Source of the DNA: Rhizaria sp. SCN 62-66
Taxonomy: Eukaryota
Direction of reading: 5' to 3'
Length of the DNA stretch: 20,000 nucleotides
NCBI GenBank assembly: GCA_001724265.1
Contig: MEDY01000098.1
Coordinates: forward strand, 58,735 to 78,734
Shown here: piece by piece, positions 3,269 through 19,730 of the stretch
Position numbering within the stretch: position 1 is the first letter of the stretch
How the letters are laid out: every line of letters begins with the position of its first letter
The notes under the pieces: generated by a model
What the model was told of the DNA's origin: nothing
Databases searched by the model: none
Seen by the model: the letters and a program-made list of their open reading frames with translations, nothing else
Made by a program: the position numbers and the translations under genes

Positions 3269-6082
3269 TCACTTGCCAAGGCGTTGGTGCGAGTGCGCAA
3301 AAGCGTCTAGAGCAGCTGCAAGTGCCATATCCACGCGCACGGTCACTTGCAACCCATGAAGGAGCTTGGTGCTGGAGTTGGCAGCCATAGTAGCGTTAGG
3401 TCCGGGGCAGCTGTCAGCAGTGTTGATAGAGCGTGCCACCGTCACTGCAGTATCATACTGCGACTGCGGCCACTGGCCCTGCTGCTTTTGCTTCAGCGCA
3501 AGTGCCCGCGCACTGCTCACCGTCATTTGCTCGCTGCTCATAGTCAGCTGGCCGCTGCCCACAGTCACTTGGTGGACCTCAGCAACGCGCAGCAGCCACG
3601 GGGGGAAGCCGCAGAGCACACGCGCACGCGTCAGTCCGCCGCTGGCGCTGTCATAAGCGGCAATCGAGCTGCTGTCTGAGGTACTGATACAAGAGCCGTT
3701 GAGCTGGAGAATAAGTTGCGGCTCTGTCGCGGGCATCGCGATTGACGTCGCCGTTGCGGCCAACACGCGAGCACAGTCCTCAAGACGCGCATTTGCACTC
3801 AGATCCACCTTGTTTGCATCATTGGCAACGTGAGCCGCTGCCGCTGCCGCTGCCGCCGCCGCTGCTGCTGCTGCTATGACCGTGACGACTGCGAAGTGCG
3901 CACGCGCACTATCAAGTCTATCGGTGCCCATGCGCTGGAGCGAGTCGAGCGCGCGGCGTGCGCACTCGAACTCAAGAGTGCCACGTGTTCTCGCTGTCGA
4001 CTCACTTTCTGCAGTAGTTGGGCTCTTAACATCAGCGGAGATCTCCGGCTCTGAGTTAGTCTCAGCGTTAGTGTCAGCGTCAGCGTCCGGCGTATCTGCA
4101 GTGGCCGTGTTTGCTTGACTGGAGGAGATCGCCTTCGCTTCAGCCGCCGCTGCGGCGCTGTTGCATTGTTGCTGCAGCAGCGTGGCCGCCGCTAGCGCAA
4201 GCGCGGGCTTGCCATGCGCCGCGCTTACAGCTGTCACCCACACCACGCCCGCGCGCGGCAGTGCGGTAAGCTGGGACCGTGGCAGTAACGGCGGCAGCGA
4301 CCGCGGCCACTCACGGTCACTCTCGTCACTGGGCGGCTCACGGTCACCAACGTTGTTGTCATCACTTGGGGGTGTGTAGAAATAAAGCCGCCTCGGGGCA
4401 GTGCAGCGGGAGCCGTCGCAACACAGCGCTGTCCCGGCATTGGCTCCAATGTCGCAGTCATTAGACGCTGCGCCACCGTCTGCTGCGTCAGGTGGTTTGC
4501 TGTCAGTGGCAGTATTTGCGGTCACGCTGCTTAGACAGTCGCACATTGCCCTGACGACAAGAGCACGGCGGCGCTTGCCTGCAGTCACGACATCTGCCAC
4601 AGCACCCGCCACAATGCGCACTTGGTCCTGCGTGGACTGAGCCGCAGGCGACTGCGAGCTCTCAGGGGGTTGGTGCGAGCTCTCAGCGAGTGCGCAGTGT
4701 TGAGACTGAGTGGCAGTCGCGGGTGCGGGAGCGCAGGTACTTACAGCGCGTGAGTGGGTACTTAGAGGTGTAAGGGCCACCGACAGAGGCTCCACACACA
4801 ACACGAACATAGGCTCAGGAGGCGTTGCCACTGACGACGCCACAGGCACCAGTGACGCCGTACTCGCAGTTTCAGCATTAACAGATGCAGATGCAGATGC
4901 AGATGTGGATGCGGGCGTAGATGCGGATGAGGATGACGTTGCGGCGAGAGCAGAGACAGCTGTGTTCGCAGCAGCTGCCGACATGGGCTGGGGACCGACC
5001 GTGACAGCGGGGTGACTGTGAGCAACAGGAGATGCCTGCAACACAGCCAACTGACTGTGGGCAGAGGCCCGGCGCAGTTCAGCCACAAACAACGGCCACA
5101 GACGCCCAATATCATCCTCATTGTGACTCTGCGGCTCATGCGACTGCGCCTCTGACTGCGATGGGGGTGTCAGTGAGCCGGTGACGTCGTACAGCGTGCA
5201 GTCAACCACGCCCACCAGCGCGACTCTAAGCAGAGCGCGCGCCACAAAAGCCGCGACCGCGCGCCTCTGTTTCAACACAGAGTCACACGCACTACTAGTC
5301 GCAGGAGTATCACTGTTCGCGGTGTCGCTATTGCTGTAACTGTTGCTGTTGCTGTTGCCGTTTGCTGCTGTGGAAAGAAGCGAGGGCGTGAGCACGAGAG
5401 CAAGGTGCTGCGGCACTTTCTCTAGAGCAACGCTATTAGTCGCACAGCGCCCGTGACCAGCAGTTGACGTTGCACCCACAACGCTTGCATTGCTGTTATC
5501 GACAGCAGCAGCGACTGGTGACGGCCAGAGTCCAAAGCTCCAGCCCCAGTGCCAGGGCAGCAGCGCACGCAGCATCGTCGCCCCTGTCTGCAGCTGCGGC
5601 TGCGCCTGCGGTGGCAAATGTGGCTGCGAGCGCGCGTGTGAGAGACGGAGCAAGGCGCGGCGCGAGCAGTGCGCTGCGCGGTATGCGAGGCGGCTTAACA
5701 TGCGCACAAATGCGTTGCGGGGGTCCGCAGCGTAGAGGTTACCCGACGCGACAGCCGCAGTCGTCGCGACAGCAAGTGGCAGGCCTGGGCGAGCGCTCAC
5801 AGCCACGCTGCTGCTGCCGTTGGTGCGAGCGCCGCTGTTTGCGCCACTGCTGGTGCTTGCTGGACGGGCATAGGCAGCGCTGGAGATGGGGGGAAGGGCG
5901 AGGTAGCGCGCGCGCAACGCAGGGTCCATGCCCTCCGTAAAGGGACCGCCGGGGCTGCGCGCGGGGTCCATGGGGCGGGGCGGGGACGGGGGGCCAGGGG
6001 AGCTGGCGGGGCGCACAAGGGGGCGGACAGAAGCTGGCGTGTCAGCAGAGGATCGCAAGGACGGCCGCACGGAGATAAACAT
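3269..6082 (-). CDS. NUS1: Dehydrodolichyl diphosphate synthase complex subunit NUS1/NgBR-like (cis-prenyltransferase partner) with large low-complexity insertions; single ORF of 937 aa (900 aa if the ATG at 5971 is used)
   Basis: NgBR motifs appear in the expected order: LEKVPQHLALV, VGVVDCTLYDVTG, SAAHGKPAL, EPQLILQL, LCGFPPWLLRVAEV, and the C-terminal AALDAFAHSHQRLGK with the RxG motif, matching the QRLGK end of human NgBR. Confidence 0.9.
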   Translation of the reverse strand: MFISVRPSLRSSADTPASVRPLVRPASSPGPPSPPRPMDPARSPGGPFTEGMDPALRARYLALPPISSAAYARPASTSSGANSGARTNGSSSVAVSARPGLPLAVATTAAVASGNLYAADPRNAFVRMLSRLAYRAAHCSRRALLRLSHARSQPHLPPQAQPQLQTGATMLRALLPWHWGWSFGLWPSPVAAAVDNSNASVVGATSTAGHGRCATNSVALEKVPQHLALVLTPSLLSTAANGNSNSNSYSNSDTANSDTPATSSACDSVLKQRRAVAAFVARALLRVALVGVVDCTLYDVTGSLTPPSQSEAQSHEPQSHNEDDIGRLWPLFVAELRRASAHSQLAVLQASPVAHSHPAVTVGPQPMSAAAANTAVSALAATSSSSASTPASTSASASASVNAETASTASLVPVASSVATPPEPMFVLCVEPLSVALTPLSTHSRAVSTCAPAPATATQSQHCALAESSHQPPESSQSPAAQSTQDQVRIVAGAVADVVTAGKRRRALVVRAMCDCLSSVTANTATDSKPPDAADGGAASNDCDIGANAGTALCCDGSRCTAPRRLYFYTPPSDDNNVGDREPPSDESDREWPRSLPPLLPRSQLTALPRAGVVWVTAVSAAHGKPALALAAATLLQQQCNSAAAAAEAKAISSSQANTATADTPDADADTNAETNSEPEISADVKSPTTAESESTARTRGTLEFECARRALDSLQRMGTDRLDSARAHFAVVTVIAAAAAAAAAAAAAAHVANDANKVDLSANARLEDCARVLAATATSIAMPATEPQLILQLNGSCISTSDSSSIAAYDSASGGLTRARVLCGFPPWLLRVAEVHQVTVGSGQLTMSSEQMTVSSARALALKQKQQGQWPQSQYDTAVTVARSINTADSCPGPNATMAANSSTKLLHGLQVTVRVDMALAAALDAFAHSHQRLGK

Positions 6083-6332
6083 ATTAAGTGAGAGATTTAA
6101 TTTAGTATTTGAGCATACGTAGATAGAGCATCACCAGGCATTGCGTTTCAAGTCTATTGACGTTGCGGTAGTGAAGATATAGATGTTTATGTCAAGCCAC
6201 CTTAGGATGTGACTGTGGTCGCCGTCGCAGCCAGGGTGACCGGGCGGCCGATTTGCACACTGTCTGCTGTTGTCAAAGTCCGTTAGTTTAGCATTTAGTC
6301 CCTTTGTGGGCATTTTCTTTGAGGACTATACT
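6083..6332. promoter_or_regulatory. Probable bidirectional promoter between head-to-head NUS1 and NAA20
   Basis: Only 250 bp, relatively AT-rich, separate the two divergent start codons. Confidence 0.6.
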
Positions 6333-7759: not shown

Positions 7760-7913
7760 TTAGTCGTCGTCCTCGTCCTCGGAGGAGGAGCCGCCCTGCA
7801 TGAGCGACCGCGGCAGCCCGCCCTTGCCTTTGACGACCGGCGCGGCCTTGGCGCCCCCCACCCGCACCGTGCCGGCGTCGGCATCGACATCAACGGCGGC
7901 GAACTCAAACCCG

Positions 7914-7944
<31 letters not shown>

Positions 7945-10900
7945 AGCCACTGTTGCGCGCGTCCTCGCGGCCGCAGCGCTCCAGCCAGTCGCCCATGGGA
8001 TCAGAGCCCGAATCGCCGTTTCTAGAGGCCGCGGCCACGGCGGCGGCGGCGGCGGACCGGCGCGCCGCGGCCTTGGTCTTGGGTGTCCCAGTGCTTTTGC
8101 TGGCGTTAGAGCCGTTGGAGGCGCTCACTGAGCGGGTGGACGGGACGGGGCTCACCGTGGACGCGGATGCGGATGCCGACGCAGCAGCACCGGCAGTCGC
8201 GCCGGCGGAAGCGCTGCTGTTGGCGAGGTTGTGGGCCGGGCTGCGGAAGGGCGCGAGCGGCGACGCCGACGGGCCCAAGTCGAAGCTGCCGCGCGACGCC
8301 GGCAGCAGCGGGGAGCCACCGCCAGCGGCCGCGGCAGCCGCAGCGACGGCGAGCGCGGCGCGCGCGGCGAGCTGCGGGGAGACAGAAGCGCGCAGCCCCG
8401 GGCTGCCAGGCGGAGCGGCGTGGGGGGCGAGGTCGTCCGTCGCGTGCGCCGCGGACGAAGCGGCGGCCGCGGCGATGTCGGACGAGGTGAGGTGGCCCGC
8501 ACCGGTGCCCGTGTTTTGACTCTGCGTCAGCCCAACGACGACGGTGGTGGCCGTGGACGGCGCCGCCGAGGGTACGAAGGCGCCGCCGCGGCCGGCGTCG
8601 CCGCGGCTGGCGTCGCCCGAGTTGCTCCGCGACCGGCCGCGCACGCCCCCGAGCCCGCAGCCACTGGGGGAGGTCGAGCGCGAACGCGAGCGCGGGCGCG
8701 TGGCGCCGGCGGCAGCGGTCTGCGGGCGGAACGGGGAGCTGGACCGCAGCTCTCTGTTGCTTCCAGCGTCGGCACCGAAGACGTCGACGAAGTCAGCGCT
8801 GTTGCTGAGGTCGCTGCCGGCGGCGTCGTCGTCGTGCATGGCGGCCGCGAAGCCGCCTCTGACGGTGGTGTTGAAGCGGTCCCGCGCGCGGCCGTGGTGG
8901 ATGTGGCCCTCAGCGTCGTCGCCGCTGTGGTTGTCCTCGCCACCGGAGTTCGAGCCAGAGCCGGAGCCGGAGCCAGTGGTTGCGGCAGCGGCAGCGGCAG
9001 CGGCGCCGACCGCGGCGGACTTTGCGCCGACGCCGGTGAAGTTGGTGTTGATATTAGCAGCGGCGTTCGAAAAGACGCTCGAGACAACATCCCTGCCTTC
9101 GTCTTCGTCGTCGTCATCGTCGTCATCATCGTGGTGCTTCTGAGTGAACCGTGCCTTCATGCCTCTCAGCCCTGCACCGCGCAGCATCGCGTCGTCAGCG
9201 TCGTCTTCAGCGGCACGGAGGGCGGCGTCGTAGTCGTCATCGCCGTCGTCGTAGCCGCCGTCGTCGGCCTCGCCCTCAACGGACAGCATGCTGCGCTGGG
9301 CCTTGTACAGGCGCAGCTGCGGGGGCGCCGCGGTGATCGCGTCTTGCATCCTGGGAGATGGTACCAAGCAATAACAACAGTGAGATGCGTGTTAGAAAGA
9401 CTTGATGCAATAACAAATTTCAGAGACGATACATTATGAACGATTTTAGCATGGAATAAATTGTTTTCACAAAGATATGGGTTGAATACGTACCGGCCAG
9501 TGACGGTGGGCCAGCCTGCGCTCTTGCCGAGCACCGCGGCGAGTCCCGGCGACTGCCTGGCGACATGACTGGCCGCATCCGCGACCGCGAGCAAGTGTGG
9601 CACATACCCGAGTCCGAACCGGCGCTGCGTCGACGTGGTGGCGGTGATTGGCGGCAGAGCAGTCGTGGCGCCCAGCGACGCGTAGTCCTTGGCAAGTGAC
9701 TGGAGCTTGTACGCGGCCTCGGCGTGGAGACCAGCCGCGATGAACTCGGGCAGCAACATCGCGCCAGAGGAAACCGCTGACTCAGCAGTGGCTGCGGTGT
9801 CAGACTTGCCGTTCACGGCGGCGGCGGCGTCAGCAGCAGCAGCGTCGGGGGTGTCGAGGTTGGCGATGCTGTTAATGTCGTTCGAGACCAGCGCGCGCGC
9901 CAGCGGCGAGGGCCAGGTGGAGAGAATCGTCGTCAGAGTCGACTCGACGAGCGTGTGCATGATGTTGTTCCACGGATGGGCGAGGAAAACAGCGTACAAA
10001 GCCGAGAAAATTGCAGACGAGAGCAGGGCCTGGGTGACGGCGTCGGTGCGCTCCACGGCGGCCGCCACGAGCGCTGTCGCATCCGAGGTCGTCATGTCCT
10101 GAGTTGTTAGAGTTAACAGATACATTAAAGATATAAATGAGTGAGTTAAAAAGTAAACTTAAAGTAGCAGCTATAAAATACAATCAAGCATGCCGATACA
10201 AAAGAATAATTTTGATTGGGTATCGGTTCAACGCGATAGATGCGTACCTGTCCGATGGAGGCAAGGTTGGCCGAGGTGGCGGCGGAGTAGCGCACGACAC
10301 AGGCCTCGCACAGACGGCCGACAACCTCAACAAGGCGGTGGCGCAGCAGACCGAGCGGGCGGACCACGACGAGGGACTGGGCCGGGAGCAAAGCGAGCGC
10401 CGTCGCTGTCTTCACGATGCCGTCATTGTTGTTCGAGTCAGTCTGGCTGTTGTCGGCGTCGTTGTTCTGAGTCTTGGTGGCAGCGGCCTCGATCTTGGTG
10501 GCGGCGGCGTCGGTGGCAGCGAGCCCCACAGGGTCGCTCATCTCGTCGTACTTGCTCTCGCTCGCACAGTCCGCAGACTCACTAGCATTCTCAGCGGCGC
10601 TGTCAGTGCTGGTGGAGCTGGAAGTGACCGTGGGCACGGCGACGAGAGACGGCGCCGTGACCGTGAGCGCGGCCGCGATGGCGGGGATGTGGGGCGCAAA
10701 CGCGTCCAGGAACGCGTGGGCCGCCTCCACAGTCAGCGAACCCTTCAATTCACGCGCGGCAGCGTTACCGTCCTCGCTGTTGTGCGTCGTCTTGGCCGTG
10801 TCACTACTGTTGCGATTATTATTATTGTGATTATTATTATAATTATTATTGTTGTTGTTCGTAGAGTCGAGGTAGGTGCACGAGTACGCGGTCTGAATCA

Positions 10901-12229
10901 TCACGATGACGGCGGAAAGCACGTGCGTCACGACCGCATCACTGCTGACGACCGACACCGCGCCGCCAGTCATGGCAGCGTCGGCACTCTTGCCGCTCGC
11001 CCCGGTACCCGTGGGCTTGGATGCGAACGCGGCGTTGAGGATGCGGTGCGCATTCTCCTCAGCGAAAAAGGCCGCCGCCAGCTTGCTATCGGGCGTCTTG
11101 ATGAGCAAATCGACCAGGAGGCGGGCTGCGTTGAGCGCGACGTCGGGGCGCGCGCGGGGCTCCTTGTCAAAGCAGTCGAGCACGAGCGAGACGAACTGCG
11201 TGTCGAGCAGCCAGGACGGGTCGAGCACCTCGCCAGTGCCGACATCCCAGCCGAGCATGATGAGCGCCTCCATACCCGTCTGCGCGCCCAGGTGGCGGAC
11301 GAGCGCGGGGATCACCTCGTCGCTGTGGGCTTGGACATACCGCAGCACGGTGGCGTGGCGGCGCTGGATCAGCGTGAGCAGGACCTTGCGGACGTAGACG
11401 AGGCTCGACGGGTCCACGCCAGCGGGCGCGGACGTGAAGGCGCTGAAGAGCGTCGGCAGCGCTGTAGGCTCGGCCAGCACGCAGTTCAGCAGATGCGGCG
11501 GCGCGAGGGTCAGCGCCTCGGCGCAGACGTGGCGCAGGCGGGGCGTGGGCCCGCCGTCGCCGCTGTCGATGTCGTCGTCGTCGTCGTCGTCGCCGTCGCG
11601 CGCGGCACTGCCGCGGCGGCGGCCGTCCGAGTCGGAGTCTGAATCCGAGTCCGAGTCAGTGAGGCCCGACAGCGCGGCCGAGATTGCGGCTGACGATGAG
11701 CCGGCGGCCGCGCCGGACGCAGATGCGGCCTTAGCGGCAGTGCGTTCGGCCTTGGCGGCGGCGCGCGCGGCCTTGACCTCAGTGCGCGTGCGCTGCGCGA
11801 CGAGATGGGCGACGGCGGCGTCAGTGGCGGGGGTCCCGTCCGGGAACTGCGTCACGATAGGGCAGTGCGCGTAGCCCTGGCGCGGGTACGGACTCACCAG
11901 GTTTGACAGGAGTTCGCGCAACACCTCGGGCTTGGACAGGCTGCGCGGGCAGAGAAAAGAGAAACAAACAGATAGAAACGAGAGACATAAGTGAGATATG
12001 GTGGATACGGAGATCGGTAGTCCAGCAAGGTTGAGAAATGGCTTTGTTGACATAAGATTCGTTGGAGTGTGACGTACTAGGCAATAATATCATCGTTTCC
12101 TGACTTGATATCCTGCGTGAGCGCAGTGTGGAACATGACGTCTTTGAGCGTAAACGAGTCGCGCGTGAGCACCTCAGCGGCGGACTCTGAGGCGGCGCCA
12201 AACATCGCCCAAAAGGAGCCGGCGTCCAT
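7760..12229 (-). CDS. PPP6R: SAPS-domain (SIT4-associated) protein phosphatase 6 regulatory subunit; exons 12229-12078, 11940-10248, 10098-9494, 9350-7760 (1346 aa)
   Basis: N-terminal SFW...FTLKDVM...QDIKSGNDDIIAYLSKPEVLRELL, later PLGLLRHRLVEVV, FLAHPWNNIMHTLVE (cf. FFxYPWNNFLH) and LGYVPHLLAVA (cf. GYMGHLTxIA), then a long acidic disordered tail. Three GTACG..CAG introns join four ORF-track fragments in phase. Paralogue-level naming is not possible. Confidence 0.88.
10816..10859 (-). repeat. Coding (AAT/AAC)n microsatellite encoding an Asn-rich run (NNNNNNYNNNHNNNN)
   Basis: Direct reading of ttattattattgtgattattattataattattattgttgttgtt inside SAPS exon 2. Confidence 0.85.
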
Positions 12230-12918
12230 GGTCACGGGGGCAGGCAGCGCGAGCGGAGACGCGGGGTGGCAAAAGCCGGCGGTCGCTGTGTGTTGAGGGA
12301 CTGTTGCTGCGTTGCAAGTCTTCGGCACTCAGAGCTGACTTGGTTGAACAGTGCTCAAGAAAAGCACCGAGAACTGTGTAAGGTAGAGACGAAATCGAGT
12401 AAGAAGATAGGTAAGCGCGGTAGTAAAGACAATAGATCAGACATGTGCTTGAACTGGGGCTGCTGAGGGTGACTGCTGGTGTGTGTGCACGAGGTTGGCG
12501 AGGGCCGTATGCAAGGGTTGGTGGAAAAAGTACAGGATTTTCATGCTGTCTTGTACGATGTGCAGCGGGGTCTGTTTCGGTATTACGAGATACCTAAAAT
12601 AAATTGCTACAGCAAATCATCACCATCTGCCGCAACGCAAAACTCAAATTGATATAGGCGGACGAACAATCCCGCGACAACCTCATTCATATTTCCCTCC
12701 CAACACTTTGACTTGCCTAGCCTCTCGTTTTTCAAGAACCCCGACCGATCGACCCGCCCGTTGCAGTCGGTCTGAGCTGGACTGTGGGAAAAAGGTTAAG
12801 CCGCCCCGGTCTGCGGTTGGGGCTGCCAGTGAGTCGAGACGGCGCGGCTCGCGAGCGGGGTTTTCTTGTTGTCCCGACTTCGCTTCTGCAGAATTTAATT
12901 CTTTTTGCAGAGAAGCAA
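12230..12918. promoter_or_regulatory. Divergent promoter/5' UTR region between the SAPS gene and the mS45-like gene
   Basis: Divergent ATGs at 12229 (-) and 12919 (+), with an AT-rich core at about 12520-12700. Confidence 0.5.
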
Positions 12919-15900
12919 ATGTCTCGCCTTGTCCGTTACGGCCCCCGCGCTGCTCGGGCTACTGGTACGACGGTGCAGTCTCAGTCGCGCAGGGCGTTCT
13001 CTACTTCCGACAGCAAGAGCGCCCCCGAGGCGACCCCGAGCGAGGCCCCTGCCGCTGCTGCGCCTGCCGCCGCCGATCAGGATGAGTTCAAGATCGCTAG
13101 CCACAGCCTCACTGCGCGCAAGTCTCGCACGCAGATCACTGACGAAGCCCTGAGCCGGACGCCCGTGGGCGCCCGCGTGGAGCGGCTGCGCGACTTCACT
13201 GGCGTCGCGTCCCGCCACGGGGCCACCGACCCTGTTTTGCACGAGACTATCCGCCGCGCTGAGCTGTCCGCCGCCAAGAAGGATGAGAAGAAGAAGAGCG
13301 AGTGGAATAGCATCCTTGCGTCGAACGAGCCCCCCGCTGTTAAGTACGTTTACCGTCATTTTGACAAAAGATTTTATACTACCCCGCTTCACTCGCACCC
13401 ACCCCGTTTGCCCTTGTTTGCCCTTAGTTGCACCCTCTCACGGCTTTGTATATGCATTCTTTCTTTTTGTCTCGCTGTGTCTACCTCTCTACAGGGCTAA
13501 GAAGCTTATTGCTGCTGGCGCGCCTTCGAACATGATCCTTAACACCATGCACCACGGTACTGCTCGCGTCCGCATCAACAAGAGCGACCGGTACGTTTCA
13601 TTATAACCTCTCGCGATTGCTAAGTTCACTCTTTTGCTCCCAAACCTTTTGCCTTTTATATAACACGCGCCACCACATACTAACATATTTTTTTATTTCG
13701 CCCTCTTTTCTGTTTTCCCTTTCTATTTCTTTCCTTTCTTTCGCATTCACTTCACCCCCTCGTCACACCGGTTTGCTCTATTCGGACCTCAAATTGACTC
13801 TAACTGCCACACGACGCCACTACAAACCTAATCCTATCACAGTGGCAACACGGACTCTCAGGACTATGTGGGCGCCAACCGCGAGCGCTTCATGGAGGAG
13901 TTCGACACGTCCGCCCAGGACCACGAGAACTCGTCCGACCCCGACGTGCTTCCCCGCCAGCGTGCCTTCACGCGCGACGAAATGCACCGTCTCCTGCAGG
14001 ACGTCGAGCACAGCGCGCGCAACGAGGCTGCATACGACCAGCAGCTTATGCTGCCCGCGTCGATCATGCTCCAGCTCCAGGAGTCGCTCTCTGAGCTTAA
14101 CGTCCTCCACAACGCTGCCGCCATCTACGTCGACAACGGTATCCGTGTCCTCACCGAGCCCGACGCCCTCGACGAGCTCTATCTCGCCAAGAACCGCGGC
14201 GACCCCGAGATGAAGCGCGCCGAGGACCTCTCCGTCACCAACGCCGCCAAGCTCAACGGCGTTGCGATGAACCCCGCCGAGGGCCTTGCTGCCCTCCACT
14301 CGACCTACGCCGCCGGCTCCGGTGGCGCTGCCGCTGCTGCTGGCTCCGCCTCCGGCGCCGCTGCTGGCGCTGCTGGTGTTGCTGCTGGCCCCGCCAGTGC
14401 CGCCGCGTCCGGCGCCGCTCTCGCCGACGCCACCGCGTACGCCGAGACCCGCCAGCGCTCGCTCACTGCCTCCGCCGACTTCGCCGGTCTCCCGCTCGAG
14501 ACCCCCGACGCGCCCCAGGACCCGCGCCTGCCCCACGGCACGGTTGCGCGCCCGTTCAAGAACATCTTCGCCGAGGCCGAGGCGCGCGCGCGGTCCGCGG
14601 GTGTCAACGGCATTCTTGACCCCGACGTCCTCCCCTCTGCGCTGGCCCGCCCCACGGTCAGCGAGCTCACGGGCGAGAACGGTGACTTCCCGTTTCGCAG
14701 CACTGCCGACGGCGAGAAGCTCTGGGCCGCTACGCGCCCGCCCGGCATGAAGCCCGAGGACGACCCCATGGTGCGCCGCGGCCGTCTCGCCGCTGCCCGC
14801 CTCGCCGACGCTGGGCTCCCCGCCGACCTCGAGGTCGCGACCAACTACCGCGAGGCCGTGCACCTGCTCGGCCAGCCGCGCTTCCGCGGCTTCATCGAGC
14901 AGCTCTCGGGACTCGACCGCGAGGCGCAGCTGGAGAAGCTGCAGGCGCTGGCCGCCATCTACGAGCACGTGCTCTTCTCCCCCGTTACCGGTGTCCACTA
15001 CGAGGAGGAGGCCCGCGCCGCGCGCCGCATGGTCGAGGCCAACCGCCGGCAGACGTCCAACAACCCGCACCCAGACCCCGTGGCGCAGGAGGAGGCCGAG
15101 ATCATCGACCCGCCCAAGGAGGCCAACGAGACGATGGCGCTGCTGCGCGAGCTCACCAAGTTCTCCCGTGACCCCACGCCCGTGGAGGAGCTCGATCCAA
15201 ACAGCGACTACGACTACCGCTACGGCCGCTTCTCCAAGCCCGCGCCGGCGGATTTCACGATGAAGGACATGAGCGACACGATGACGGACGTGATGCGCCA
15301 CGACCGCTTCCATCAGTACTACGAGACGCCCCTCAAGACTCCCGACAACGGCACCGAGCCCCTCGCGGCCGAGAACACGCTCGAGTCGTTCAGCTCGCTC
15401 CAGCGCACCGAGTACCGCAAGCTCGCCCGCAAGGCCAACGACCCGCGGTTCACGACCGTGCTGGCTAACAGCAAGCTGCGCCGCTACCGCCAGGGCCTCG
15501 ACCTCTACTCGGGCATCCCGTCGCACCTGCTCGACTTCCTGCACTACTCGTCGCTGCCGGCCGACGACCCGCGGCGCGTGACGCACCCGCTCGCGGTCAA
15601 GATGGCTGAACAGGTGGGCGCCGTGCGCGACGCCATCGCGACCCCCGAGCACTCGGCGGGCGGCGCCGTCGCGGCTCACTCCGACCTCGAGACGGGCGCG
15701 CCCTTCCTCAACGGCGCTGTCCCGCCCGCAGTCGTCAAGGCCACGCATGCCGCGCGCGCGGCGCGCGAGGCCGCGGCGAACCCCGTGGAGTGGGATGCAC
15801 ACCTGGACCCCGTGACCGACACGGATTACGACCCCATCCTGTGGCAGCGCGTGGAGCCCTTCCTGGCCGAGGGTGAGAACACGCTCGAGTTCCCCGACCT

Positions 15901-18541
15901 CGAGACGGACCTCGAGCAGGAGCTCCAGGAGCGTTCACGCCTGCTGCCGTCGGCGACGGGCAAGCCCATCGCCGAGGACGACGTGCGTCTGGTCGACGCC
16001 ACCGATGGCGAGATCGAGCCCGTCAACGGCGTGTCGTCCATCAACCCGCTCATCGCCAAGATCTACGGCCGCGAGGCCCGCGTGAACCGCGAGCTGTCGG
16101 CCGCGCTGGGCACGTTCCCGGCCTCGCAGACGGCGGCGCTGGCGCAGCTCTTCGCGCTCGATCCCGCCGCCGCCAAGACCGCCGTGCGCGGCGCCGTGGA
16201 CCGCTACTCGGTGCTTGCGGCCATCGGCTCCGGCGAGCTCCAGGTGCCCAAGGAGCTGCTGCTCGAGGCGGGCCTCGGGTCGCTCAAGGCGCTGCTCCCG
16301 CCCGCTGTGGACTTTGCCGCCGCGCTCAAGGCCACGCAGGCCCGCGCTCAGGGCTCGCTCGCCCTCACCGGCAACGCCCCCGCTGCCGCTGCCTCCGCCT
16401 CTGCCGCTGCCGCTGCCCCTGCTGCTGGAGCGACGCCCATCTTTGCCGTGCCGGGCTCCGTGCTCGCCGGCAACGGCGCGCTTGACGGCAAGGCTGTTCC
16501 GGCCCTCGTCGACGGCCTCGACGCCGTGTCTGCCGCTACCACCTCTGCTGAGTCGCCCACGGTCGCCTTTGCCGCGGCCCTGGAGCGCGCTGCCGAGGCC
16601 GTGCGCCTGGACAAGATGCGCAAGATGCTCGCCTCGCGCGGCCTCGACTCGACTGGCGCCCAGCTCGCGCACCGCCGCGCCGAGAACGCCGCCAAGGCCG
16701 AAGCGCTCAACGCCGCCGCCGCCATCTCTGCCCTGCGCTCGCGCGCTGCGGCCGCGGGCGGCGACGTGCTGTCGCTGCTCGACCCCTTGGACCCGCGTCT
16801 GCAGGCCATGCAGGTGCTGCCCTACTCGTCCGGCGAGGACTCGACGCTGGAGCGCGACCCCGGTTTCGCTGACCGCAAGATCGTCGCGTCCAACGTGACG
16901 CAGCCCGTGTTCGAGGACGAGGACTCCGACAACCGTCTCGAGGCGATGCCCAAGGCCGAGCTCGGTGACAACGACTCGCTGTCGCGCACACTGCAGGACC
17001 CTGTCGAGTACTTGCAGGATAACCTCTCGCCGACGCAGTACCGCATTCTGTACAACAACGTCGAGCGCCGCCGCGAGAATGCGTTCCACGCCAACCAGCT
17101 CTCAGACGACGAGTGGATGTCTCTGTACTCGCGCTCGCGCTCCCGCGAGTCGCTCATGGGCATGGACGGTTCCGAAACGGAGGAGCGCGAGCTGCTGCTG
17201 ATGCGCCGTGAGATCACGACTGGCGCGCTCGAGGCGATGCGCGAGCGCAAGGAGGAGCGCCATAAGCTCAACGACCACGACACGGTCATCTACGACAACG
17301 ACGTCGACACCAAGGCCGACCTCGACGAGATGCACATGCACCGTATCTCGCGCCAGCTCCAGCCCTACGAGGTGCTGCCCGTCACGGACAAGGGCTCCGC
17401 GCCCTTCATCGCGATCGAGCAGCAGACGCACGTGTACAACCTGCACAAGCTCGACCCCGCGACGTTCCACCCCCGTTGGATCGCCAAGCGGCTTAACATC
17501 TCACCCAACGCCGTCGTAGCCATGCTCAAGGCGCAGGACCTGATCCACAAGACGCACATCCACGAGCGCTCCTCGCGCGTCGGCGAGTCGCGCAACCCCG
17601 ACCCCGCGGCCGACTCGTCCGAGGACGACGGCCGCCCGCTGCCGTCGGGCCCTGAGGTGGACCTGCTCGACGAGCGCGTGCTTTACCCGCGCACGCTCGA
17701 CGACCTCCAGATGCCGTACCCACCCGAGACGACGCTGTCGTCCGAGTCCACCGAGACGCTGCTGTCGCTCGACGCGCCGCACCTCATCGGCAAGGTGTCG
17801 TTCGAGGAGGATTCGTTCCGCGACCCTGCCTGGGGCCGTGAAAAGTACGCCCCCGTGCGCCTCATCCACGAGGCCGACCTCGACAAGCGTGGCGGCGCCG
17901 AGCGCGAGCAGGACCAGCTCAACCGCATGTGGGCCAAGAAGGAGCAGATCCTCGACGCTGTGGAGCGCGCTACGTTCGCCAAGTTCGGCCCCGTGCACTG
18001 GGCGTCTGGCCGCGGCACGCTGCAGCGCCCGCCCAAGATGCCCCGCGAGATCATCTCGCCCGACCTGCAGCCCCCCGCGCGCCACAACTGGGTGCTCACG
18101 GGCACTGAGGAGAGCTACCGCAGCACCTTCACCGTCTCCGTGCGCGACCGCGATGGCTACTTGCGCCACCCGACGTTCCGCGAGTTCATGAAGGTTCGCC
18201 GCCGCGAGCGTGACCAGCGCCTGCCGTTCTACTGGCGCAAGCACAAGGTTGTCGCCAAGCTGCCCGAGGTCAGCGCGATGTACGTCGACCAGGTGCTGCT
18301 GTCGCTCATGCGCACCGACGGTGTGTCGAAGCACGGTGCCCGCGTCGTCGACATCCACTCCGAGATGCACCAGGCCGAGGAGCGCGACGAGGTGTCCGCC
18401 GCCGAGCTCGACGTCGCGCTCGGTATCGACATCGGTGAGCAAATGCACGCTGTCGACGTTGTCCAGGACGAGACCTTCTACACTGTCGCCTCCGAGTCGG
18501 ACGGTGGGGTCTACTCTGACGGCGACAAGGCGCGCGCGTAA
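12919..18541 (+). CDS. Large putative mitochondrial protein (1739 aa) with a C-terminal region resembling mitoribosomal small-subunit protein mS45 (Bot1/GCD1 family); exons 12919-13343, 13495-13590, 13843-18541
   Basis: Presequence-like start MSRLVRYGPRAARATGTTVQSQSRRAF|STS. Two GTACGT..CAG introns join in phase, and there is strong C/G third-position bias. The motifs VYNLHKLDPATFHPRWIAKRLNISPNAVVAMLK and VSVRDRDGYLR lie near the C-terminus. The gene structure is well supported; the family call is from motif memory and less certain. Confidence 0.75.
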
Positions 18542-19730
18542 GCGCTCTGATGTCTCTGGTGGCGTTGCCGTCGTCGCAGTCGTCACAATTGCTGTCTCTC
18601 GCGACGTCGCCGCCGCTGTTGGCGGCGTCGCTGACTCGTCTTGTCTTGATCATTATCATCATCTTCACTCTTGTCTTGGTCTAGTTGTTCTTGGTCTGAT
18701 GTTGTCTTTGGTTTTGTTGCCGTTGTCGATATCATTATCTTCGTCTTCGTTGGTGTCGATAAGTTCGGTTGGTCTGGTTGGTGGTTGGTGGCCGCGCTAC
18801 ACTGCGGTCGTGGTGCATTTCCCGCTGCTGCAGCGCGCGCAACTGCGATGTGACTAGTGCGCGAGTGGATGAGAGTGTGTCGCTTTTTGTGTGGTTTCAT
18901 GGTTGTTATTGTTGCTACGACTGACATTTGATCCCTGTGTTGATAGCGTATTTATTATGTGTGTCAGTCACACACACGACGCAGGAGCTCAACTTTATCT
19001 CATCAGACAATGACACTGTCACACGATCGCGATCACTGCTATCTCTCACACTCTCTCGTGCGCTTAGTCACGCGTACTGTTGCTACTGTTGCGGTGTTGG
19101 CCACGCTATTTGCTTTTACTTTTATGTATTCGCTTGCAGGGCGCCTCGTTGCGACTGCAGGCCACGCAAAACTCGCTCTTGTTACGAACAGGTCGGAGAG
19201 CACAAGTATATATTAATATTCAATTTAAAACACATAACGAACAAAAAACACAAAAATATATGTATCTCAAACAATACAAATATCTTATTTACTCCAATTC
19301 TACTCCACGTCGCATCTTTAATTGTTAATACACCAGCATGAGCCACTGCAGCATCTTTGATTAAGCCGTACATCATCCTTGACCACACGAGAGGAAGCCG
19401 CAATTCACGCTGCAATCAAAGCTGATCATCAGCAAGCTTTTGGGTGAACACGCTTCCACACACTGCAGTGACGCTTACAACGATGAGTACACAGTAACAC
19501 TGAGCATACAGTAGAGATGCAGTTTGATTAAAGATGAGTCTGAAGATGCGACTTCGTTGATATGACTATGCGTTGATATGAAATGAAGAAAGATATGGAG
19601 ATGCTGAAAATGTCTGGATTTTTGTATTTTGTCGTTACTACAACGCACACATCGAAGAACTACTCGGGGTGCCTGTAAACACGCATACACAGAGAGTGCA
19701 AGAGGGTTAACTCCACCAACTCATCCTGTG

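Follow-up and report, generated by a model that had tools for sequence, protein, structure and literature searches.

What is the giant protein encoded on the plus strand at positions 12919-18541 of the window, a stretch of 20,000 nucleotides from Rhizaria sp. SCN 62-66 (assembly GCA_001724265.1, contig MEDY01000098.1, positions 58,735 to 78,734 of the forward strand)? A reading made from the DNA letters alone, here called the sequence-only reading, had proposed a 1739-residue mitochondrial protein that may be a hugely extended or fused form of the mitoribosomal protein mS45. Our analysis indicates that the window protein, with its 1739 residues, probably belongs to the mS45/Bot1p (= mS22) family of the mitochondrial small ribosomal subunit. 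The features of the gene are collected in Table 1.

Table 1. Features of the giant gene and of its product. Positions are those of the window; pLDDT, predicted local distance difference test score; GC3, GC content at third codon positions.
Feature	Positions	Strand	Details
Exon 1	12919..13343	+	ATG, presequence-like N-terminus, start of conserved N-terminal block; joint 13343>13495 in X1 and X2
Presequence-like N-terminus	12919-13008	+	first ~30 codons of exon 1
Intron 1	13344..13494	+	151 nt, GTACGT...CAG, GC 0.46; skipped in X1/X2 contigs, retained in X5 contig
Exon 2	13495..13590	+	96 nt; homologue P0004 aligns across
Intron 2	13591..13842	+	252 nt, GTACGT...CAG, GC 0.42; joint 13589>13842 in X1/X2
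Exon 3	13843..18541	+	4699 nt with stop codon; residues 175-1739; GC3 at least 0.80 per 300-nt window
Conserved N-terminal block	13312..14125	+	residues ~132-268, spans both introns; BLASTP and alignment A4
Fast-evolving helix-rich middle	14126..17278	+	residues ~269-1319; 41-45% identical to P0003 only
A3T2-type three-helix (helix-turn-helix-like) domain	17399..17578	+	pLDDT 81-90; aligns with the relatives' Bot1p-positive stretch; part matching solved mS45 chains
Conserved C-terminal core, B2T2-like	17819..18271	+	residues ~1500-1650; predicted strands and helix at 18041-18238
Acidic, poorly conserved C-terminal tail	18272..18538	+	pLDDT <50 at model residues 386-420

The gene is real, with three exons and a product of 1739 residues, and it is probably a nuclear gene of a GC-rich eukaryote. 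A stop-to-stop frame on the plus strand (13832-18541) is open over 1569 codons, and the ATG at 12919 starts the first exon in a separate upstream frame. When the three exons were joined by a script, the spliced length was 5220 nt, or 1739 codons and a stop, which reproduced the length that had been proposed. The two introns are short, and CTAAC-like branch sites were noted in addition to their GTACGT donors and CAG acceptors. These donors and branch sites hint at a fungal source, a reading that was weighed and not taken up. The joints between exons were seen in contigs from X1 and X2, two runs of one sample with libraries labelled RNA-Seq cDNA. Contigs of both runs contain the joints 13343>13495 and 13589>13842 (cut +1), both GT..AG and both with zero mismatches, and thus exactly the two introns were removed. 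These contigs come from either spliced cDNA or an intron-less DNA copy, and in either case they confirm that the three exons are read together. A homologous protein, P0004 (1808 aa), supported the same model, since its BLASTP alignment runs unbroken over both junctions (residues 132-256 against 143-268, 44% identity).

Contigs of the cDNA type tile the region from 12969 to 18564, which is nearly the whole gene. Three aspects of the contig data limit this support. X1 and X2 carry the flag "RNA? probably DNA", which marks their nature as uncertain. In a further run, X3, a poly(A) RNA contig extends 80 nt into intron 1, and none of the contigs reaches over the whole gene. X1-X3 gave no cover upstream of ~12748 and thin cover past 18572, and they were not used to place transcript ends.

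Several other joints were considered and rejected as splicing. The joint 14344>14575, the opposite-strand joint 16351/16662 and the joints with inserted letters either lacked splice-site ends or had the look of assembly chimeras. One X1 contig also omits 48 nt at 14307-14356, a gap that is in frame, removes 16 codons, has the ends CG..GG and falls in a low-complexity run rich in Ala, Gly and Ser. Either a variation in length or a slip of the assembly in this repetitive sequence may account for the gap; it is not a splice. The contigs of another run, X5, cover the introns and intergenic DNA. Between 12300 and 19000 they show 24 listed differences from the window, mostly C>T and many of them in the introns and flanks, and a 16-nt insertion behind 18718. 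This suggests that X5, from a different sample, holds the same organism as another strain or with another allele.

The composition of the gene agrees with this model. The GC3 of the coding sequence is 0.89 and reaches at least 0.80 in 15 of 15 windows of 300 nt, compared to 0.71 and 0.46 in the other two frames; the introns are also GC-poorer (Table 1). Codon choice is extreme, with 62 AAG against 0 AAA and 128 GAG against 6 GAA. Low-complexity windows of the SEG type hold 295 of the 1739 residues (~17%), mostly in Ala-rich runs, and neither internal repeats (by self-BLAST) nor transmembrane-like segments were found in the protein. The first 40 residues contain 7 Arg or Lys, and the earliest acidic residue stands at position 31. 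By this heuristic, the N-terminus is compatible with a mitochondrial presequence. The strong codon bias, the mostly complex sequence and the presequence-like start that the sequence-only reading had described were therefore all found again.

The evidence for the family lies in the C-terminal ~400 residues, which the sequence-only reading had likened to mS45. A profile of the window protein's own clade (A1, 6 sequences) was searched against 1.84 billion representatives and retrieved 48 proteins at E<=1e-3, the distant ones through the C-terminal core. A Pfam scan covered 39 of the 48; 5 clade members, which were scanned separately, and 4 fragments of 63-146 aa made up the rest. Bot1p (PF12298) was matched at E<=0.01 in 17 of the 39 relatives, and 6 of these exceed the gathering score of 23 bits. 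It is the most frequent family in the 39 relatives and, among Bot1p, MRP-L20 and MRP-S22, the one that alone rises above its cut-off. The Bot1p matches all lie upstream of the core and span model positions ~12-80. In the relative P0029, the Bot1p stretch (520-573) is the same stretch that BLASTP aligned to the helix-turn-helix-like block of the window (P0001 residues 1191-1237). This block, which had been picked out before any search, was located at 17405-17542. The plant protein GCD1, to which the sequence-only reading had also likened it, is listed as a putative bL20m/MRPL20 in one review.

Next to this link through a single relative stands a comparison of profiles. Seven Bot1p-positive relatives, with no sequence from the window's clade, were used to build profile A5. 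The hhalign comparison of A1 with A5 gave a probability of 99.7% and an E of 3.2e-26 over 263 collinear columns, with both conserved blocks in the same order. A5 alone matches solved plant mS45 (6xyw_BD, 6.1e-8; 9evs_e, 8.7e-8), and the E for plant mS45 improved to 4.4e-10 (A2) and 1.1e-12 (A6, a family profile of 36 sequences) when the clade was added. With A6, Chlamydomonas mS45 scored 4.2e-5, yeast mL58 0.0013, Toxoplasma mS45 0.012, kinetoplastid mS22 0.052 and yeast mS45 0.29. Profile-level homology to experimentally solved mS45/mS22 chains was thus found through hhalign and the family profiles together. These comparisons support, at the level of profiles only, the placement of the C-terminal ~400 residues in the mS45/Bot1p (= mS22) family, and plant-type mS45 is, judged by the same profiles, the nearest solved relative of this module.

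The layout of the module fits what is described for the family. In the available text of Valach et al. (PMC7947838), mS22 is made up of two domains, the helical A3T2 and the two-stranded B2T2, two-domain forms of this type are widespread, and mS45 is a derived mS22. A3T2 stands for three helices and two turns, B2T2 for two strands and two turns. The fungal "mS45" is there an mS22 whose B2T2 has been lost, while mL58 and Rrg9 are A3T2 paralogues, with mL58 described as having no core behind A3T2. In the window protein, the A3T2-like block is followed first by a linker and then by a conserved core rich in strands, and this order fits the two-domain mS22 type. An AlphaFold2 model of the last 420 residues, made from an alignment of 20 sequences, had a mean pLDDT of 61.5. 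Three helices were predicted at model residues ~41-100 (pLDDT 81-90), and three short strands and a helix at ~255-320 (pLDDT 65-84). The core contains the near-invariant motif VRD..G.LR.PT..EF..VR.RE. It is probably B2T2, an identification with four weak lines of support: it stands behind A3T2, its secondary structure as predicted fits, PF10245 is matched below threshold in four relatives, and superpositions on mS22 chains were obtained at low Z. When the C-terminal model was searched with Foldseek, no match reached E<=1e-3. Both predicted domains were spanned only by plant and Chlamydomonas chains in the structure search. Since sigma-factor region 4 and other helix-turn-helix domains score equal to the mitoribosomal chains in that search, the structural evidence is consistent with the family assignment, not decisive for it.

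A number of results weigh against placing the window protein in this family. With Pfam, neither the 1569-aa frame nor exons 1 and 2 yielded a family at E<=1. Even when the limit was relaxed to E<=10, the 6 clade members matched neither PF12298 nor PF10245, so that the HMMER comparison with Bot1p/mS45 that had been proposed earlier came out negative for the protein itself, which does not reach the 23-bit gathering score of PF12298. A phmmer search of the protein against the Protein Data Bank (PDB) returned 5 rows, of which none was ribosomal and all had E>=0.089; for the clade-only profile A1 there were 0 rows. The profile of the core alone (A3) matched no mS22 chain in the PDB; its two exoribonuclease rows, at E ~0.87, were set aside as chance matches. 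PF10245 (mS22) was found on the core in 4 of the 39 relatives, in all cases below the cut-off. Because a direct match is absent, the link to mS45 is transitive, and it runs through the A3T2 region, which is common to mS45, mL58, Neugrin/Rrg9 and mS109. In the ESM Atlas, Neugrin clusters (0.85-0.87) outrank the Bot1p clusters (0.82). The likeness to mS45 therefore stood up in the profile comparisons and did not appear in the direct Pfam test.

These results raise another possible explanation, namely that the protein is an A3T2-superfamily paralogue (Neugrin/Rrg9, mL58 or a new branch). It would then be a mitochondrial RNA-binding, assembly or translation factor and not a structural subunit, and the long N-terminal part would be a functional region of its own. 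The proteins mS45, mL58 and Rrg9, which share the A3T2 domain, are easily confused with one another according to PMC7947838, and the ranking of the Neugrin clusters points the same way. The sole Pfam-like signal of the window's block is to MRP-L20 (PF12824, mL58), at 13 bits and E 0.12, below the gathering score of 30.4 bits, and MRP-L20 was also matched on the Bot1p stretch in 11 of the 39 relatives, all below that cut-off. However, Neugrin (PF06413) was found in 0 of 45 proteins (6 scanned at E<=10 and 39 at E<=0.01), and the Atlas scores are all below 0.9 and therefore serve as leads only. Bot1p is both commoner in the relatives than MRP-L20 and the only ribosomal family to pass its cut-off, in 6 of them. 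Plant mS45 is separated from yeast mL58 by about nine orders of magnitude in E (1.1e-12 against 1.3e-3), and the conserved core behind A3T2 fits the two-domain mS22 and not mL58 as PMC7947838 describes it. We therefore regard a paralogue of this kind as unlikely.

The remaining ~1300 residues differ from the module in their conservation. Strong conservation in the long relatives P0003, P0004 and P0009 marks a block at residues ~132-268, which holds the invariant run ENSSDP..LP..R.FTR.E..R.LQDVE (alignment A4). Over the ~1000 residues that follow, an identity of 41-45% is reached with P0003 only. In P0004 (1808 aa) and P0009 (1673 aa), the length has been kept, but hardly the sequence. The identity to P0003 over ~1000 residues suggests that the N-terminal region is under constraint. 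No Pfam family was found in it at E<=1, and no shorter stand-alone homologue was found at E<=1e-3 among 7999 scored candidates. The best look-alikes in the ESM Atlas scored 0.79, were hypothetical phage proteins and were disregarded. Modelling with AlphaFold and a Foldseek search, which the sequence-only reading had recommended for this region, were carried out on a model of 1145 residues from 4 sequences. The model was poor (mean pLDDT 41.3, predicted template modelling score 0.23, 860 of 1145 residues below 50) and predicted 620 helical against 6 strand residues. The 25 Foldseek rows all had E>=1.6, from a model too poor to inform the search. With a model of such low confidence, no known fold was found, which does not prove that there is none.

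The extension could also have arisen when other known proteins, mitoribosomal or RNA-binding, were fused, as had been suggested alongside a lineage-specific extension. All that favors a fusion is how large the protein is and that mitoribosomes in general tend to gain protein mass. The searches described above all bear on it as negatives of limited sensitivity: 0 Pfam families at E<=1, no shorter homologue at E<=1e-3 among the 7999 candidates, a best Atlas score of 0.79, nothing at E<=1e-3 among the 25 Foldseek rows of a low-confidence model and no internal repeats by self-BLAST. The uneven pattern of conservation also argues for a constrained, fast-evolving extension and not for a fusion of known subunits, and we consider a fusion very improbable. 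The sequence comparisons support the view that the N-terminal ~1300 residues are a constrained, fast-evolving and lineage-specific extension, predicted to be rich in helices, which is conserved in a handful of close relatives only. Of the two origins suggested beforehand, the extension was thus borne out, and the fusion was not.

A different question is whether the long protein is the working form at all. The C-terminal module might be made or used alone, through an internal start, processing after import or a separate transcript; in that case, the 1300 residues upstream would be either a product in their own right or a degraded leader. The lack of a contig over the whole gene would allow this, as would the poor structure prediction and fast evolution of the N-terminal region, and in the public gene models of a relative the corresponding gene is split into products of 1089 aa and 486 aa. 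Against it, the frame that leads into the module stays open over 1569 codons and has a GC3 of at least 0.80 in each 300-nt window, and the contigs tile almost the entire gene. For each of two relatives, one single protein is predicted (1808 aa and 1673 aa) in which the conserved blocks come in the same order, and the N-terminal region is held at 41-45% identity to P0003 over ~1000 residues. It is therefore quite improbable that the module works by itself, and the full-length, 1739-residue family member is the reading that we carry forward.

The split public models belong to the closest relative, which appears in a public genome record as P0003 (1089 aa) and P0005 (486 aa), both listed with a longest contig of the same length (6392). 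The start of P0003 resembles translated intron sequence just before the conserved GNTDSQDY, and counterparts of exons 1 and 2 are absent from it. In the public annotation, a gene of this giant type thus seems to have been both divided and cut short.

Long N-terminal parts are not confined to the window's clade. Among 22 sequences of at least 700 aa (the spliced window protein and 21 stored matches), the core lies near the C-terminus, and the N-terminal parts fall into several mutually unrelated groups, such as P0012/P0017 and P0025/P0045/P0050/P0029/P0036; these long members are predicted proteins from genomes and metagenomes, and some of the gene models may be faulty. Many distant members (P0012, P0017, P0030, P0033, P0041, P0050 and others) are 900-1600 aa long and carry A3T2 and the core at their very C-terminus. 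Their N-terminal parts are unrelated to that of the window protein and mostly unrelated to one another. N-terminal growth seems to be recurrent in the mS22/mS45 family.

The window protein was also compared with solved and described members of the family. Plant mS45 (9evs_e, 6xyw_BD) has 383-420 residues, against 1739 here; it was not matched by the single sequence or by the clade-only profile, and its HMMER alignment stops short of the C-terminal core. The mS45 of Chlamydomonas reinhardtii (7pkq_C, 999 aa) is the closest precedent for an extended form. In the text available from PMC8660880, mS45 is called "highly variable", and the Chlamydomonas protein has an extension of more than 400 aa that forms a protuberance of the body near the mRNA entrance. 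The extension of the window protein is about 3 times longer, lies wholly N-terminal to the module and has no detectable similarity outside its own small clade; it is known here from sequence, and its place on the ribosome would follow by analogy. Since an extended mS45 is already known from Chlamydomonas, the window protein is an extreme form of a known kind.

Other members of the family are more distant. S. pombe Bot1 is identified with mS45 in the consulted part of PMC8565316. The match to fungal mS45 (S. pombe Bot1; S. cerevisiae Mrps35, 5mrc_66, 8d8j_6) was not significant for yeast (E 0.29), and the window protein falls short of PF12298, the Pfam family of these proteins. It has a conserved core behind A3T2, whereas the fungal proteins have lost B2T2 as far as PMC7947838 describes them. 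The two-domain mS22 of kinetoplastids and other protists (7ane_o, 9hny_Ca, 7pua_Ca) and of human (8k2a_SX, 6zsb_AR), represented by PF10245, scored below the level that would prove homology, and the core-only profile of the window's family matches none of the mS22 chains. Proteins of comparable size are mS48 (1788 aa) and mS49 (1181 aa) of kinetoplastids, which belong to unrelated families, so that the comparison is one of size only. They are the largest mitoribosomal proteins named in the available text of a review (PMC8998825), which describes them as protein scaffolds. Among the papers listed by literature searches for long forms of mS45, none describes an mS45 or mS22 of this size, which does not prove that none has been described.

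Taken as a family member, the protein would work as follows. The C-terminal ~400 residues would be the family module, composed of the three-helix A3T2, a linker and a short strand-rich core that resembles B2T2. By homology with solved mitoribosomes, and in analogy to them, this module would fasten the protein to the small-subunit body. The ~1300-residue extension would comprise a presequence-like signal, a strongly conserved block of ~70 residues and a mostly helical remainder, as predicted, and it most likely stands out from the subunit as additional protein mass, in analogy to Chlamydomonas mS45. We infer mitochondrial import, incorporation of the full-length protein into the ribosome and the role of the extension from these likenesses. 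A bolder proposal, to which we give somewhat less than an even chance, concerns the small clade of GC-rich eukaryotes from wastewater and activated-sludge samples to which the window protein belongs. In this clade, mS22/mS45 may have become a protein of ~190 kDa whose helical arm of 1300 residues, anchored by the conserved ENSSDP..LP..R.FTR..LQDVE block, builds a large protein-only protuberance of the small subunit that no solved mitoribosome shows.

Elsewhere in the window, long frames on the minus strand (7760-9391, 9166-10158 and 10146-12089) stand head-to-head with the giant gene. The middle one, 9166-10158, has a marginal match to SAPS (SIT4 phosphatase-associated protein) at E 7e-6, exactly at the cut-off. 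The frames within 7760-12089 may all be exons of a single gene, transcribed divergently from the giant gene and sharing with it the upstream region 12090-12918. Further away, 3269-6130 on the minus strand is an open frame of 953 codons with no Pfam family at E<=0.01, and several further frames of 100-300 codons in the window are also without a Pfam match. Rfam and tRNA scans of the window found nothing.

The finding opens no new kind of system, and mS45/mS22 was already known as the most variable small-subunit protein specific to mitochondria; this gene would raise its size to 1739 residues, near that of kinetoplastid mS48 (1788 aa), among the largest mitoribosomal proteins recorded. Standard domain libraries miss the mS45/mS22 family entirely in the window's clade, and the gene corrects the fragmentary public gene models of a relative. 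If the reading as a ribosomal protein of ~190 kDa is true, it would be among the largest mitoribosomal proteins known. The unrelated long arms across the family hint that mitoribosomes have expanded repeatedly at the N-terminus of mS22/mS45, and they would offer a natural series in which the growth of ribosomes in protein mass can be studied. If the full-length protein sits in the ribosome, this lineage would have a markedly remodelled small subunit that is worth a structure.

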